Notes under the pieces: model-generated
Seen by the model: the letters and a program-made list of their open reading frames with translations, nothing else
Told to the model about the DNA's origin: nothing
Database searches by the model: none
Position numbers and translations under genes: made by a program
Virus record (IMG/VR): IMGVR_UViG_2698536549_000013
From: a virus
Taxonomy: Duplodnaviria > Heunggongvirae > Uroviricota > Caudoviricetes
Length of the DNA: 9,136 bases
Reading direction: 5' to 3' (one strand)
Shown here: positions 3,210 through 9,136 of the stretch, piece by piece
Layout: each line of letters starts with the position of its first letter
How positions within the stretch are numbered: position 1 is the stretch's first letter

Positions 3210-3514
3210 CCCGCCCGGAAATTCGCTTTCTGATGCGACTTGCGCTCCGTCTGGGGCGCACCTTATCCGAACTGCGGCACAGCCTGAGTGCGAGCGAGGC
3301 GATGATGTGGATGGAGTTCGACAGGATATCCCCGCTGGGTGATGAGCGCGGGGATATCCGTAATGCACAGATCGTGAAAGCGGTTTTCGGGGCACAGGGG
3401 ATGAATGTTGCACTGAAGGACGCCATGCTCTGCTGGGGCGAGGATGAGGATAAGCCGGAGGTGGATCCGTTTGCGGCGCTGGAAGACGCGCTGAGCCTTG
3501 CAGCACAGTCATGA
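2835..3514 (+). CDS. Tail assembly chaperone G-T fusion, produced by programmed -1 ribosomal frameshift
   Basis: The -1 frame relative to G is open from stop 3182-3184 through the slippery site to TGA 3512-3514 (includes ORF 3233-3514). A -1 slip at A_AAA_AAG joins ...VRKK to VARPEIRFLMRLALRL... The T-like extension has no convincing independent start or RBS. Confidence 0.65.
3200..3206 (+). other. Slippery heptamer A_AAA_AAG for -1 programmed frameshift (G to G-T)
   Basis: X_XXY_YYZ heptamer in the G frame (AAA 3201-3203, AAG 3204-3206), three nt before the G stop; the downstream -1 frame is open. Confidence 0.65.
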
Positions 3515-3522
3515 ATGATGAG

Positions 3523-3543
3523 AACCGCTGAGGCGGTTTTTTT
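3523..3543 (+). terminator. Intrinsic-terminator-like hairpin between the G-T and tape measure genes
   Basis: AACCGC (3523-3528) pairs with GCGGTT (3533-3538), loop TGAG, followed by a T-run through 3543. Located 9 nt after the T stop and just upstream of the tape measure RBS. Confidence 0.4.
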
Positions 3544-3561: not shown

Positions 3562-6500
3562 ATGGCGACGTTACGTGAACTGATTATCAAAATTTCGGCA
3601 AATTCACAGTCATTCCAGTCGGAGATCCAGCGGGCGTCCCGTATGGGCAGTGAATATTACCGGACCCTGCAGAATGGCGGACGTCAGGCTGCTGCGGCAG
3701 CCAGGGAGCAGTGCCGGGCTCTGGCTGAGCTGAACAGCCAGTTGACGGAAATCCGCGCTTCGGCTGTCGGAATGACCAGTGCGTTTGCCGGTGCCTTTGC
3801 CACCGGACACCTGATTTCGCTGGCAGATGAATGGAGCTCCGTGAATGCCCGTCTGAAACAGGCGTCGCAGTCATCGGATGAATTTGCGTTATCACAGAAA
3901 GTGCTGATGGACATCAGCCAGCGGACAGGCACCGCATTTTCGGATAATGCGACCCTGTTTGCCCGTTCGGCTGCCTCGATGCGTGAATATGGTTACAGTG
4001 CTGATGATGTGCTGAAGGTGACGGAGGCCATTTCGACAGGGCTGAAAATTTCCGGTGCCAGTGCGGCAGAGGCGGGTTCGGTGATCACCCAGTTCAGCCA
4101 GGCGCTGGCACAGGGGGTGTTGCGCGGCGAGGAATTTAATTCGGTCAATGAAAGTGGGGACCGGATCATTCGCGCACTGGCTGCAGGCATGGGCGTGGCC
4201 CGTAAGGATCTGAAGGCGATGGCGGACGATGGTCAACTGACGGCGGATAAAGTCGTTCCCGCGTTAATCAGCCAGCTGGGGATATTGCGTGATGAATATG
4301 CAGCCATGCCGGAAACGGTGTCTGACGGGATCACGAAGGTGGAAAACGCCTTTATGGCCTGGGTGGGCGGCGCGAATGAGGCCAGCGGAGCGACGAAAAC
4401 GCTCTCCGGCGCACTGAACGGTGTGGCCGGAAATATTGATACCGTGGCAACAGCTGCGGGTGTGCTGGTTGCTGTCGGGGTGGCCCGGTACTTTGGTAAT
4501 CTGGCTTCCGGAGCGATGTCTGCCACGGCAGGACTTGTGACCGCTGCACGTAATGAAGTGGCACTGGCTGAGGCCCAGTTAAGGGGAACGCAGATTGCCA
4601 CGGCGCGGGCAAGGGCAGCCGTGTACCGGGCTCAGCAGGCTGTGGCGGCAGCCCGCGGGACTGAGATGCAGATTGCGGCAGAGGCCCGTCTGGCGGTCAC
4701 ACAGGAACGCCTGAACAGAAATATTGCTGCCAGAACCGCCGCCCAGAATGCGCTGAACAGTACAACGGCGGTGGGCTCACGTCTGATGAGCGGTGCGCTG
4801 GGACTGGTTGGAGGCGTACCCGGACTGGTGATGCTGGGAGCTGCCGCATGGTACACGCTGTACCAGAATCAGGAGCAGGCCAGGGAGTCTGCGCGCCAGT
4901 ATGCACTGACGATTGATGAAATCGCGCATAAAACGCCATCAATGTCTCTGCCTGAAGCCTCAGATAATGAAGGGCGAACACGGGAGGCGCTGACAGAGCA
5001 GAACCGGCTGATTGATGAGCAGGCCAGCCGGGTGAAATCCCTGCAGGAAAAAATCGCCGGGTATCAGTATGTGCTGGCTAATCCGGGCTGGACGACCGGT
5101 AACGGCTTCATGATAAACCATCTGACATCGGTGAAAACTGTAACGGAAGAGCTTGCTCAGGCAACAGAGCAGTTTGCTGTTGAGCAGTCCCGTCTGGCAC
5201 AGATGCAGGAAAAAGCGCAGTCCATTCAGGATGTGCTTGCCGGACTGGAAGAGCGCCGTGTTGTGTTAATTCGTCAGCAGGCAGCAGAGCAGAATAAAGC
5301 GTATCAGTCACTGCTGGTCATGAACGGTCAGCATACGGAATTCAACCGCCTGCTGGGGCTGGGTAATGAACTGCTGCAACAGCGTCAGGGACTGGCGAGT
5401 GTACCGCTGCGACTGCCACAGGCCACTCTGGATGATAAACAGCAGAGCGCCCTGAATAACACAGAGCGTCAACTGGCCCTGTCCCGGCTGAAAGGGGAAG
5501 AAAAAGAGCGTGCCCGGCTGGGGTATGCGGCGGATGACCTTGGTCTGGTGGGGGATACGTATCAGGAGGCGAGGCAGCGTTACATCCGTAATTCGATGGA
5601 AGCCTGGCGCAATAATGAGGCGAATAAACCCAAATCCCGGGCCGGAAAATCAGGGGCGGAAAAAGCGGAAGACAGTTTTTCCCGTCTGCTGAAGCAGCAG
5701 AAGGAACAACTGGCACTGGCCGGGAAGAATACAGAACTGGCAAAACTGAAATACCAGACCTCGCAGGGCGAGCTGAAAACCCTGACGGAGATACAGAAGC
5801 AGGAGCTGCTGCGCAATGCTGCCCTGATTGACCAGAAGAAAATCCGGGAGCAGTTACGGGCCCGGGAGGAGACCCTGAAAAATGATAATGCAGACGCAAG
5901 GGCATCAAATGACGCTGAGCTGCTGGGGTACGGGCAGGGTGAGCGGGTCCGTGAACGGATGCGGGAGCTGCAGCAGATTCGTGACGGCTACCGCCAGAAG
6001 GATGCGGACCTGCAGTCTCAGTATCAGACAGGGGATATCAGTGAGGATTTTTACAGACAGGCGCTGGCGCAGAATGCGCAGTATCTGAGTGAACGCCTTA
6101 AAGACCAGGAGGCTTTTTATGCCGAATCGGATGCGCAGCGTGCTGACTGGCAGAAAGGGCTGCAGGAAGGGCTAAGTAACTGGGTGGACAGCGCATCAGA
6201 TTACGCTTCACAGGCAGCACAGCTTGCGACAGACGGTATCTCAGGGATGGTGAATAACATCACGGAGATGCTGAACGGAAATAAAGTGGAATGGCGCAGC
6301 TGGGCTGCATCAATCCTGCAGGAAATATCAAAAGTTCTTATGAATGCGGCCATTGTCAACGGCATTAAGATGGCGGCAAACAGTATGTCCGGTGCAGGAG
6401 GATTTTTCGGCAGTATAGGCAACTGGCTGGGTGGCGCGGTGGCAAATGCAAAAGGCGGCGTTTATACCTCGGCAAACCTGAGTGCATACAGTAACAGTAT

Positions 6501-6804
6501 TGTGGACACGCCCACGTACTTTGCCTTTGCAAAAGGGGCAGGGCTGATGGGGGAGGCCGGACCTGAAGCCATCATGCCCCTGACCCGGGCAGCGGATGGT
6601 TCACTCGGCGTGCGTGCGGTGGGCAGTATGAACGGCAGTGCGGGTCTGGTGTATTCCCCGGTGTACCACATCGCCATTCAGAATGACGGCGCTAACGGGC
6701 AGATAGGGCCGGAAGCGGCGGGCACCCTTGTGCAACTGATTGACCAGCGGGTACAGGCGGTGATGTTATCCATGCGTCGTGACGGAGGAATGCTGAGTGG
6801 ATGA
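3562..6804 (+). CDS. Tail tape measure protein (lambda H-like role)
   Basis: 1080-aa ORF with RBS AGGAGAAAGG (3549-3558). Position after the frameshifted chaperones is diagnostic. Long Ala/Gln/Glu/Arg-rich predicted coiled-coil centre, two hydrophobic Gly/Ala-rich segments (~4430-4550 and ~4780-4860) and a Gly-rich C-terminus are typical of tape measure proteins. Confidence 0.9.
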   Translation: MATLRELIIKISANSQSFQSEIQRASRMGSEYYRTLQNGGRQAAAAAREQCRALAELNSQLTEIRASAVGMTSAFAGAFATGHLISLADEWSSVNARLKQASQSSDEFALSQKVLMDISQRTGTAFSDNATLFARSAASMREYGYSADDVLKVTEAISTGLKISGASAAEAGSVITQFSQALAQGVLRGEEFNSVNESGDRIIRALAAGMGVARKDLKAMADDGQLTADKVVPALISQLGILRDEYAAMPETVSDGITKVENAFMAWVGGANEASGATKTLSGALNGVAGNIDTVATAAGVLVAVGVARYFGNLASGAMSATAGLVTAARNEVALAEAQLRGTQIATARARAAVYRAQQAVAAARGTEMQIAAEARLAVTQERLNRNIAARTAAQNALNSTTAVGSRLMSGALGLVGGVPGLVMLGAAAWYTLYQNQEQARESARQYALTIDEIAHKTPSMSLPEASDNEGRTREALTEQNRLIDEQASRVKSLQEKIAGYQYVLANPGWTTGNGFMINHLTSVKTVTEELAQATEQFAVEQSRLAQMQEKAQSIQDVLAGLEERRVVLIRQQAAEQNKAYQSLLVMNGQHTEFNRLLGLGNELLQQRQGLASVPLRLPQATLDDKQQSALNNTERQLALSRLKGEEKERARLGYAADDLGLVGDTYQEARQRYIRNSMEAWRNNEANKPKSRAGKSGAEKAEDSFSRLLKQQKEQLALAGKNTELAKLKYQTSQGELKTLTEIQKQELLRNAALIDQKKIREQLRAREETLKNDNADARASNDAELLGYGQGERVRERMRELQQIRDGYRQKDADLQSQYQTGDISEDFYRQALAQNAQYLSERLKDQEAFYAESDAQRADWQKGLQEGLSNWVDSASDYASQAAQLATDGISGMVNNITEMLNGNKVEWRSWAASILQEISKVLMNAAIVNGIKMAANSMSGAGGFFGSIGNWLGGAVANAKGGVYTSANLSAYSNSIVDTPTYFAFAKGAGLMGEAGPEAIMPLTRAADGSLGVRAVGSMNGSAGLVYSPVYHIAIQNDGANGQIGPEAAGTLVQLIDQRVQAVMLSMRRDGGMLSG

Positions 6805-7138
6805 GATTAAGACTCTTCACTGGTGTCCCCGGGAAGGGATGCAGGTGACGGAGAAACCGTCGGTGATGACGGTGAAGTTTGGCGACGGTTATCAGCAGCG
6901 TCGTCCGGCAGGACTGAATGCGCAACTGAAGACCTTTCAGGTGGTTTTTCGGGTGACAACGGATGCTGAGCGGGAGGCACTGTCCGCGTTTCTGTCATGG
7001 CATGGTGGTTACCGGGCTTTTTTGTGGAAGCCCCCGAAACATAACCGGACGGTCAGGGTGGTGTGCCGGGAGTGGAGTATTACGGATAACGCCCGGTACA
7101 GTGATTTCAGTTGCACGATAGAGCAGGTAGTTAGATGA
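6797..7138 (+). CDS. M: Minor tail protein M (lambda gpM family)
   Basis: 113-aa ORF starting at GTG 6797 with GGAGG (6784-6788) upstream, overlapping the tape measure stop (6802-6804). Recalled lambda gpM shares motifs ('...KFGDGYQQR.PAGLNA.LKT...', '...HGG...FLW.PP...') and the position directly after the tape measure gene. Confidence 0.8.
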   Translation: MDEIKTLHWCPREGMQVTEKPSVMTVKFGDGYQQRRPAGLNAQLKTFQVVFRVTTDAEREALSAFLSWHGGYRAFLWKPPKHNRTVRVVCREWSITDNARYSDFSCTIEQVVR

Positions 7139-7218
7139 GAATTATCCTATAAATCATTCTTTAGTGTTTAGTTGTTAATTATTTTTAATCTGTCTTGTCA
7201 GAAAGTGCGAAATCGATC

Positions 7219-7248
7219 TTGCATTTACATTTTGTTACATAATATAAA
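7219..7248 (+). promoter_or_regulatory. Candidate sigma70 promoter and OmpR-box-like element upstream of the porin gene
   Basis: TTGCAT (7219-7224) is a -35-like hexamer, with ATATAA/TATAAA (7242-7248) 17-18 bp downstream. Embedded ATTTACATTTTGTTACATAA (7223-7242) resembles the tandem 10-bp OmpR half-sites of ompC/ompF promoters as recalled. Lies in the AT-rich leader ~90-115 nt upstream of ATG 7337. Confidence 0.35.
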
Positions 7249-7336
7249 TTGAACTAAGAATTTGTATTAAAATATTTTAATTTTTGTTCATGACATCTGA
7301 ATGCATGAATAGTTCAGTTTAAATAAGGATTAAATC

Positions 7337-8491
7337 ATGAAAAAAATGACAGTGGCACTTTCTGCTGTAGCAGTGGCAGTGATGTTTGCTGCGGGGGCGC
7401 AGGCAGCAGAAGTTTATAATAAAGATGGTAATAAACTGGATCTTTACGGGCGTGCAACCGCTCTGCATTACTTCTCGGATGATAAAGGTAATGACGGAGA
7501 CCAGACTTATGCTCGTCTCGGCTTTAAAGGCGAAACGCAGATTAATGATCAACTGACCGGATTTGGTCAGTGGGAATACCAGTTCTCTGGTAATAAAACG
7601 GAATCTGAAGGTTCCGCGGGAAATAAAACCCGTCTGGCATTTGCAGGTCTGAGATTTGCAGATGTTGGTACCATTGATTACGGACGTAACTATGGTATTG
7701 CTTACGATGTCGGATCATATACTGACGTACTGCCTGAGTTTGGTGGTGATGGCTGGACGCAGACCGATAACTTTATGACGGCCCGAACTTCCGGTGTCCT
7801 GACTTACCGTAATACAGACTTCTTCGGACTGGTTGATGGTCTGAATTTTGCGGCGCAGTATCAGGGCAAAAATGAGCGTGATGACCTTCAGAAGGCTAAT
7901 GGCGACGGGTATGGTTTCTCGGCCAGCTATGAGTTTGATGGTTTTGGTTTTGTCGCTGCGTATACCAAGTCAGATCGTACTGATAAGCAGGTTCAGGGGT
8001 TGAATGGTACTGCAGATGTTCTTGATCCTGCATCAGGTAAAAAGGTTGGAGAAAAAGCAGTTGACTCAGGTAGTGTGGCAAAAGGTAAACATGCTGAATT
8101 CTGGGGAACTGGTCTTAAATATGATGCCAATAACCTGTATCTGGCAGCAGTGTATTCTGAAACCCAGAATATGACGACCTTTGGTGATCAAGGTGTTGCG
8201 GATAAAGCTCAGAATATCGAAGCCGTTGTTCAGTATCAGTTTGATTTTGGTCTGCGCCCGTCCCTTGCCTACCTTCAGTCCCGCGGACAGGATGTTATGG
8301 TTGGTGGTGTGAACCATGGCGATCAGGATCTGGTTAAATATATTGATGTCGGTGCGACTTATTACTTTAACAAGAATATGTCCACCTATGTTGATTATAA
8401 AATTAACCTGATTGATGAAAGTGAATTTACCCGGAAAGCCGGTGTTGCGACAGATAATATCGTTGCTGTGGGTATGACTTATCAGTTCTGA
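7337..8491 (+). CDS. General diffusion porin, OmpC/NmpC/OmpD/Lc family (phage-borne moron)
   Basis: 384-aa ORF with RBS AAGGA (7324-7328). Signal peptide [23 protein letters not shown] cleaved before [15 protein letters not shown], the mature N-terminus shared with enterobacterial OmpC/NmpC as recalled. Conserved PEFGGD constriction-loop motif and C-terminal ...VAVGMTYQF ending in Phe. Set in AT-rich DNA unlike the flanking tail genes. Confidence 0.9.
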
Positions 8492-8664
8492 TTATTGCTG
8501 ATAAGTTAATAAATACGGGCCGTCTGCCCTTACAGGCGGCCTGTATCAATGAAAACACAGTTTTCATTGGTCACTGCGATCAGCAATTGCCATCTGGCAT
8601 GTGCTGATTTAACTTTCTGTTATTACCTTTATTGGTTTTATTTTAAATTGGACTTTTATTGTTC

Positions 8665-8688
8665 GGGGCGCGTCTGCGCCCCTTTTTT
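8665..8688 (+). terminator. Rho-independent terminator at the 3' boundary of the porin moron
   Basis: GGGGCGC (8665-8671) pairs with GCGCCCC (8676-8682), loop GTCT, followed by TTTTTT (8683-8688). Lies 13 nt upstream of the L start. Confidence 0.6.
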
Positions 8689-8700
8689 ATGGGCGGATAT

Positions 8701-9136
8701 ATGCAGGATATTCACGAAGAAAGCCTGAACGAGTCGGTTAAGTCAGAGCAGTCACCGCGGGTGGTGCTCTGGGAAATCGACCTNNNNNNNNNNNNNNNNN
8801 NNNNNNNNNNNNNNNNNNNNNNNNNNNNNNNNNCCCGATTGAGGGCAGCGGCTTTGAGATGAACGGAAAGGGCAGCAGTGCCCGCCCGTCGCTGACGGTG
8901 TCCAATCTTTTCGGCCTTGTCACCGGGATGGCGGAGGATTTGCAGAGCCTGGTGGGTGCCACGGTGGTCCGCCGCCGGGTGTATGCGCGTTTTCTTGATG
9001 CGGTGAACTTTGTGGCGGGGAATCCGGAGGCAGACCCGGAGCAGGAGCTGACGGACCGGTGGGTGGTGGAGCAGTTATCAGCGCTGACGGCCATGACGGC
9101 CTCGTTTGTGCTGGCGACACCGACGGAGACGGACGG
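8701..9136 (+). CDS. L: Minor tail protein L (lambda gpL family), partial: interrupted by an assembly gap and running off the window end
   Basis: N-terminus MQDIHEESLNESVKSEQSPRVVLWEIDL closely matches recalled lambda gpL (MQDIRQETLNE...VVLWEIDL). After the N-run, a different frame encodes ...GSGFEMNGKG...RPSLTVSNLFGLVTGMAEDLQSLVG.TVVRR.VYARFLDAVNFV..., again matching gpL. No stop before the window end. Confidence 0.8.
8784..8833. other. Assembly gap (run of 50 N) inside the L gene
   Basis: Exactly 50 consecutive N. The L reading frame differs on the two sides (ATG 8701 versus CCC 8834), and lambda gpL has about 31 residues between the flanking motifs, so the true gap length is not 50 nt. 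Confidence 0.95.

Follow-up and report, generated by a model that had tools for sequence, protein, structure and literature searches.

Why should a porin gene stand among the tail genes of a prophage, and what would switch it on there? A preliminary description of the window analysed here, a stretch of 9,136 nucleotides from a tailed virus (Caudoviricetes; IMG/VR record IMGVR_UViG_2698536549_000013), had noticed in the porin leader a sequence that resembles the OmpR sites of ompC and ompF, and had proposed that the porin is wired into the EnvZ/OmpR circuit of the host. The answer that we somewhat favour is that this box serves a self-contained porin cargo gene as its operator, from which a regulator of the OmpR family, likely phosphorylated OmpR (OmpR-P), would activate transcription at a position like that of the C3 and F3 sites.

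The window comes from a lambdoid prophage of E. coli, of which it is the tail region. It is 100% identical to a prophage of strain N51 and, among the matches listed, 99.2-99.9% identical to prophages of other strains, mostly STEC isolates. The genes follow one another in the order tape-measure, M-like, porin, L, and the region is laid out as follows.

3562-6804: tape-measure gene
6797-7138, + strand: gene for an M-like minor tail protein (PF05939, E 3e-33); its stop is the left edge of the insertion
7139-7336, + strand: AT-rich porin leader of 198 nt, at the left end of the 1.56-kb insertion
7337-8491, + strand: porin gene, 384 amino acids, NmpC/OmpD/Lc clade (PF00267 over its full length, E 6e-144)
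8492-8664, + strand: long 3' UTR, partly similar to the nmpC 3' region
8665-8690, + strand: intrinsic terminator, GGGGCGC-GUCU-GCGCCCC then UUUUUU, at the right end of the insertion (stem -16.4 kcal/mol)
8701: start of tail gene L, placed according to the annotation of the matching prophage

In the identical N51 prophage the M-like gene is labelled "phage tail protein". The L gene contains a run of 50 N (masked bases) at 8784-8833.

Is the porin gene an addition to this tail region? A query that fuses the last part of M to the first part of L finds the junction uninterrupted in at least 1198 E. coli genomes. Because M and L are contiguous there, the 1.56 kb that lie between them here are an insertion. 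In porin-free prophages the stop codon of M shares ATGA with the start codon of L (positions 457-462 of the porin-free locus L359), which suggests that the two genes are translationally coupled there. The porin insertion has broken this overlap, the M stop lying at 7136-7138 of the window and the L start at 8701. The base composition of the insertion also deviates, with a GC content of 23-26% in the leader and 39-50% in the porin gene, against 55-62% in the tail genes. These are two of the marks by which a moron is recognised, namely insertion between otherwise adjacent genes and a deviating composition; as for signals of its own, the terminator is clear and the promoter is predicted and conserved. 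The porin cassette is, with its predicted promoter and terminator, a self-contained moron of 1.56 kb in the classic layout. The terminator resembles that of nmpC, and L starts only 10 nt past its U-run, so that late transcription must read through it.

Of 5426 complete E. coli genomes, 93 carry the leader; it is invariably chromosomal and accompanied by the porin of this cassette. The cassette is counted in 93 to 126 of these genomes, about 2%, according to whether one searches with the leader or with the porin region. The E. coli plasmids match the porin region in 15 places and the leader in none; the related porin genes on plasmids thus have a different upstream region.

As for the porin itself, it is 68% identical to K-12 NmpC and to S. 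arizonae OmpD, 58% to OmpC and 55% to OmpF. By these identities it belongs to the NmpC/OmpD/Lc clade and is closer to NmpC and OmpD than to OmpC or OmpF; the NCBIfam "OmpC" subfamily model is barely passed (507.7 bits, with a cut-off of 484). Compared with NmpC, OmpC and OmpF, the protein has 18-23 additional residues (about 219-243, encoded at about 7990-8070 of the window), presumably in a surface loop.

What is written in the 198 nt before this gene? The elements of the leader, predicted or conserved, are given here from left to right.

7192-7207, + strand: conserved block GTCTTGTCAGAAAGTG, in which AAAGTG (7202-7207) is invariant in all five leader versions
7224-7243, + strand: predicted OmpR-type operator TTTACATTTTGTTACATAAT, with half-site a, TTTACATTTT, at 7224-7233 and half-site b, GTTACATAAT, at 7234-7243
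7249-7254, + strand: predicted -35 hexamer TTGAAC, 5 bp past the box; ATTGAA is invariant
7273-7278, + strand: predicted -10 hexamer TATTTT, after a spacer of 18 bp (16 bp in the leader version L100)
7284-7286, + strand: predicted transcription start, likeliest at G7286, 7 nt past the -10 hexamer
7286-7310, + strand: predicted stem-loop GUUCAUG...CAUGAAU at the 5' end of the mRNA
7325-7329, + strand: ribosome-binding site AAGGA, invariant, 7 nt before the ATG

The sequence ATTTACATTTTGTTACATAA sits exactly where it had been placed, at 7223-7242, in the spacer between the M-like stop (7138) and the porin ATG (7337). Its description as two tandem 10-bp OmpR half-sites also holds, in the register 7224-7243. 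The box reads TTTAC-ATTTT / GTTAC-ATAAT, that is, two direct 10-bp half-sites with (T/G)xxAC cores and a T-rich tract, oriented as the porin gene. Half-site a of TTTACATTTTGTTACATAAT agrees with K-12 C1a at 10 of 10 positions and half-site b with F1b at 9 of 10, while against whole K-12 sites the agreement is 15/20 for C1 and 17/20 for F1; these sites are the same 20-bp tandem of 10-bp half-sites with xxxAC cores, in the same orientation to the gene.

An OmpR matrix was built from the seven ompF and ompC sites of K-12, whose sequences were checked in K-12 DNA and whose boundaries we take to be those of Harlocker 1995 and Yoshida 2006. In the scan with this matrix, which the preliminary description had proposed as a check, no other match in the window, on either strand, scores as high as the box (23.5 bits; the next plus-strand match has 15.9), and the score of the box is reached by none of 2000 shuffles of the leader. 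With 21.1-23.5 bits it lies above the training sites, which score 5.5-20.2. The matrix is also specific: in 544 kb of sequence surrounding enterobacterial porin genes it finds ten matches of at least 17 bits, none of which comes up to the 21.1 of the box, and nine of the ten are on the coding strand of a porin gene, 160-200 nt before its ATG. The consensus of OmpR repeats obtained by ChIP-exo, GTTACATTTTGTTACAT (PMC5438342), has 1 mismatch in 17 positions to 7224-7240, where the chance expectation is 0.01 even with three mismatches allowed. At the level of sequence, the box is confirmed as a genuine, high-scoring and conserved tandem half-site of the OmpR type. The same matrix finds neither a contiguous array of three sites (of the F1-F2-F3 or C1-C2-C3 type), the neighbouring 20-mers of the leader scoring about 1 bit or less, nor an F4-like distal site in the leader, and the IHF consensus has no site there. 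For the further suggestion of the preliminary description, that the AT-rich leader may be an H-NS target, the analysis covered the base composition, with 23-26% GC.

Has evolution kept the box? Five leader versions were compared, taken from E. coli genomes, from IMG/VR and from one metagenome contig, with one representative each; their porins are 84-100% identical. Across these versions 47% of the leader columns are invariant, and the longest invariant runs are TTTACATT (7224-7231, in the box), ATTGAA (7248-7253, at the -35 hexamer) and AATATTTT (7271-7278, at the -10 hexamer); they are followed by ATGACA (7290-7295, in the hairpin), AGTTC (7311-7315, in the 5' UTR) and AAGGA (7325-7329). TTTACATT and AATATTTT are the two runs of eight bases, and two invariant runs of at least this length arise in 0.5% of column shuffles. 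Only 7% of the 15 columns directly upstream of the box are invariant. Half-site b varies as GTTAC, GAAAC, GTTGC and CTTAC, all of which occur in known OmpR sites or are one base off, and the box keeps 13-21 bits in every leader version. No version has an indel between the box and the -35 hexamer. A degenerate pattern of box plus -35 hexamer was also run against IMG/VR and metagenomes: nearly all its matches are chance hits in AT-rich DNA, and the three new porin loci that it found all have the L100 leader.

OmpR is not the only regulator of its family that could read such a sequence. At every specified position TACATTTTGTTACA (7226-7239) is an RstA box, TACATNTNGTTACA, again with a chance expectation of 0.01; this box, a tandem TACA with a 6-bp gap, derives from SELEX and tolerates imperfect repeats, and csgD provides a known case in which sites for RstA and OmpR overlap (PMC4117788). 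Other leader versions have TACA-N6-AACA, -TGCA or -TACG in place of the RstA box. The minus strand of the box, GTAAC-N5-GTAAA, agrees at 9 of 10 positions with CpxR, one mismatch away. We take the consensus used in this last comparison to be that of CpxR, a regulator that controls ompF and ompC. Since the RstA consensus fits the box perfectly and the CpxR consensus nearly so, the identity of its reader is something that we infer. Might it be read mainly by RstA, in the PhoQP-RstBA pathway that responds to low Mg2+ and acid, or by CpxR under envelope stress, with OmpR secondary or absent? We consider this unlikely. The commonest of the sampled leader versions has GAAACA as half-site b, which is a canonical OmpR half-site (C1b, F2b) but breaks the second TACA of RstA and leaves CpxR with only 7/10. 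The CpxR match, moreover, occurs by chance in 18% of shuffles, and in its orientation, and in the 5 bp that separate it from the -35 hexamer, the box reproduces the layout of the OmpR sites at ompC and ompF. Among the candidates of the OmpR family, OmpR itself is on this evidence the most likely to read the box.

The next question concerns the promoter. The box had been described as overlapping a plausible -35/-10 pair, and such overlapping pairs do exist: TTGCAT-15-TAATAT scores 6.0 bits and TTTACA-15-TAAATT 8.8 bits. As the main promoter they were rejected, being weaker than the downstream pair TTGAAC/TATTTT, with 15-bp spacers and a TTGCAT that is not conserved. A simple consensus scan had given no plus-strand match in the leader, and minus-strand matches at chance level; a weighted sigma-70 matrix was adopted after this. 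With the weighted matrix, TTGAA(C/T)-16/18-TATTTT is the top candidate in six of seven leaders. In the seventh, L100 (10.2 bits), a 2-bp deletion between the hexamers shortens the spacer from 18 to 16 bp, and an unrelated pair upstream beats it by 0.1 bit. TTGAAC/TATTTT is thereby the sole predicted promoter with invariant hexamers that stands at or near the top score in every leader version.

How far can such a scan be trusted? In control leaders the true ompC promoter came third, with 7.8 bits, and the true ompF promoter was missed, so that the scan is a guide and not a proof. For Salmonella ompD it returned the TTGAAC promoter, with a predicted start within 1 nt of the one implied by the reported leader of 69 nt (PMC3333887). 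The resemblance to ompD extends further: its TTGAAC, a predicted -35 hexamer, is the same as the one proposed here, its ribosome-binding region TAAGGATTA is similar, and its 5' UTR is structured. It differs in its longer leader and in that its locus (L014) has no OmpR-matrix match of at least 17 bits; the main known controls of ompD are CRP and four small RNAs that act in the coding region.

From the -10 hexamer, the porin mRNA most likely starts near G7286, the first G of the predicted hairpin, which in L100 also lies 7 nt from the -10 hexamer. All seven outer pairs of the stem-loop are kept in six sequences. The folding energy alone is not significant (z -1.1), and the support comes from one diverged lineage: in L100, four one-sided changes keep the pairing of the RNA through G-U pairs and break the palindrome of the DNA, which is modest evidence that the stretch is transcribed. 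MicF and MicC show no significant pairing with the predicted leader and the early coding region (z -1.8 and -0.2, where their true targets give -5.5 and -5.0).

These elements can be put together in a mechanism. A dimer of a host response regulator of the OmpR family, most probably phosphorylated OmpR, would bind the half-sites at 7224-7243 head-to-tail and recruit RNA polymerase to a weak sigma-70 promoter, with a start near G7286. With 5 bp between its end and the predicted -35 hexamer, the box would span about -62 to -43, where F3 and C3 lie. The likeness in geometry is close: ompC has C3, 5 bp, TTGGAT, 17 bp and GAGAAT, and ompF has F3, the same 5 bp, TAGCGA, 17 bp and AAAGAT, where the cassette has the box, 5 bp, the -35 hexamer, 18 bp and the -10 hexamer. 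The mRNA would carry a leader of about 51 nt that opens with the stem-loop, shorter than the 79-110 nt of ompF and ompC, and would end at the terminator at 8665-8690. In this way the porin would be transcribed from an otherwise silent prophage. Is this plausible for a repressed prophage? An inserted porin gene with a predicted promoter and terminator of its own may reasonably be expected to be expressed from a repressed prophage under host control, and in strain LF82 transcription of the NmpC porin of the Perceval prophage does exceed the background of that prophage 10-fold (PMC9928086).

The arrangement also makes a prediction about osmolarity. The ompF and ompC genes have three contiguous sites, the strongest being distal, whereas the cassette has one strong proximal site and no F4-like site. 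A single near-consensus site, with no weak neighbours and no distal site, would make the promoter dependent on OmpR and already on at low OmpR-P, without the shut-off of ompF at high osmolarity and with little dependence on osmolarity. Promoters of this kind have reportedly been met before: Maeda and Mizuno are said to have found in 1990 that a single suitably placed OmpR site can activate the ompC promoter, and Goh in 2004, in work cited by PMC5438342, that one OmpR dimer site by the promoter is enough for OmpR dependence at tppB/dtpA, tppB being reportedly OmpR-dependent but not osmoregulated. Those single-site promoters are chromosomal (tppB/dtpA) or engineered (ompC); here the same behaviour is predicted for the porin of a prophage.

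Would OmpR necessarily activate from this box? The most instructive comparison is with nmpC of prophage DLP12 and lc of phage PA-2, which are porins of the same clade, are carried as cargo by lambdoid prophages, and show an OmpR-like box some 90-113 nt ahead of the ATG. They share with the cassette the arrangement TGACATC-N10-AATAGTTCA as well as a related 3' UTR and terminator. Their insertion site differs, nmpC being flanked by the Q antiterminator gene and by the lysis genes, the present porin by M and L. Of greater weight, nmpC, the nearest characterised prophage porin, is bound and repressed by OmpR, and its ChIP-exo peak falls on an OmpR-like box that lies 43 nt downstream of the start adopted by the study (PMC5438342). 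After a shift of +777, calibrated on ompF, the peak is centred about 88 nt before the ATG, on GAAACCAAAACTTACATCTTGAAATAATCA. Under it, 71-100 nt before the ATG in the K-12 nmpC leader (locus L194, 4897-4926, minus strand), lies an element of three half-sites, GAAAC-N5-CTTAC-N5-GAAAT.

By analogy, the box of the cassette might be a repressor site, which overlaps a promoter (TTGCAT/TTTACA...TAATAT/TAAATT) or lies just downstream of a start near 7213, so that OmpR would lower the amount of porin. The 8.8 bits of TTTACA-15-TAAATT speak for this reading. So does the invariant AAAGTG at 7202-7207, which aligns with nmpC AAAAGT, about 12 nt before the nmpC start implied by PMC5438342; with this alignment, an upstream start that places the box inside the transcript, as a roadblock, is possible. 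We nevertheless hold repression to be improbable. As a sigma-70 -10 element the AAAGTG block scores 1.6 bits, TTGCAT is not conserved, the -10 of the TTTACA pair varies among the aligned leaders (TAAATT, AAAATT, TGAATT, AATATT), and spacers of 15 bp are poor. Repression would, in addition, give no reason why ATTGAA and AATATTTT are invariant and keep a fixed distance to the box. The nmpC box is weaker and stands downstream of the reported start, whereas the box of the cassette is close to the consensus and stands upstream of the predicted -35 hexamer, an arrangement that predicts activation.

A bolder idea suggests itself, which we put forward tentatively and would not expect to hold: an ancestral porin cassette may have been rewired in sign. 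In nmpC and lc the box inside or after the promoter would repress, and in the M/L cassette the box upstream of a re-spaced -35/-10 pair would give a minimal one-site activation. The porin would then be made whenever OmpR-P is present, largely insensitive to osmolarity and free of MicF and MicC.

Where did the leader come from? The alignment to the upstream regions of ompC, ompF and nmpC that had been suggested is fruitful in part. It brings out about 23 nt of the ompC type and the elements shared with nmpC, but extended similarity to chromosomal porins is absent both from 79 enterobacterial porin loci and from K-12 ompC and ompF. As only these 23 nt or so around the box match leaders of the ompC type, the leader is no mere copy of that of a chromosomal ompC. 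The closest protein relatives of the porin (66-68%) have unrelated leaders. One may then ask whether the box no longer functions and is left over from the promoter of an ancestral porin, or is a match by chance, in a leader that is 77% AT and whose likeness to ompC ends so close to the box. This is very unlikely: chance is excluded by the shuffles and by the specificity control, and in a relic the invariance of the box would be unexpected beside the 15 upstream columns at 7%. Still harder to credit is a gene-proximal promoter (TTGTTC at 7284-7289, 18 bp, AATAGT at 7308-7313, a start near 7320 and a leader of about 17 nt) with the box as a distal site of the C1/F1 kind, since, although the box would then lie at about -97 to -78 as C1 and F1 do, AATAGTTCA is common to the nmpC leader and AATAGT adjoins the Salmonella ompD start, the pair scores 6.3 bits, three leader versions no longer have its -35 hexamer (GCGTTC, TCGTTC, ATGTTT), the 40 bp between the box and TTGTTC contain no OmpR-like sites, and the hairpin kept by G-U pairs would stay untranscribed.

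What is new in all this? OmpR boxes before porin genes, porins as prophage cargo (Lc, NmpC) and the control of nmpC by OmpR are already established. The insertion site at the M/L junction, a leader confined to this prophage family, and a one-site architecture that predicts activation are new; no paper on a porin at the M/L junction, or on its accession numbers, was found in the literature.

If activation by OmpR from the C3/F3-like position is real, the consequences reach beyond the prophage. About 2% of complete E. coli genomes, many of them Shiga-toxin-producing, would gain an extra major porin, the level of which is set by the envelope-stress system of the host and not by the phage. Permeability to antibiotics and bile, recognition by other phages, and surface antigens could all change. 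For those who study regulation, the box would be a natural one-site OmpR promoter in which to learn how position decides between activation and repression, beside the repressed nmpC.

The other end of the transcript deserves attention as well. The porin 3' UTR, about 200 nt with the terminator (8492-8690), shares the block AACTTTCTGTTAT with the 3' UTR of K-12 nmpC in the alignment. That nmpC region we take to hold the porin-inhibiting RNA ipeX, as Castillo-Keller is said to have reported in 2006, in a paper that PMC8065619 cites. Given this likeness, the cassette may, through its ipeX-like 3' UTR, also lower the OmpC and OmpF of the host. Should the rewiring in sign be true, such a 3' UTR could lower the host porins while the new one is made, and the porins of the surface would be swapped; the swap would exclude other phages or alter permeability in Shiga-toxin-producing strains.

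An Rfam scan of the whole window found no family of the MicF, MicC or IpeX type and, as its sole match, one below threshold: a stretch at 3476-3543 on the plus strand weakly resembles isrK, a family of Hfq-binding small RNAs (23.7 bits against a gathering score of 50, E 0.087). This stretch lies just 5' of the tape-measure gene and has at its end a hairpin and a U-run that resemble a terminator.
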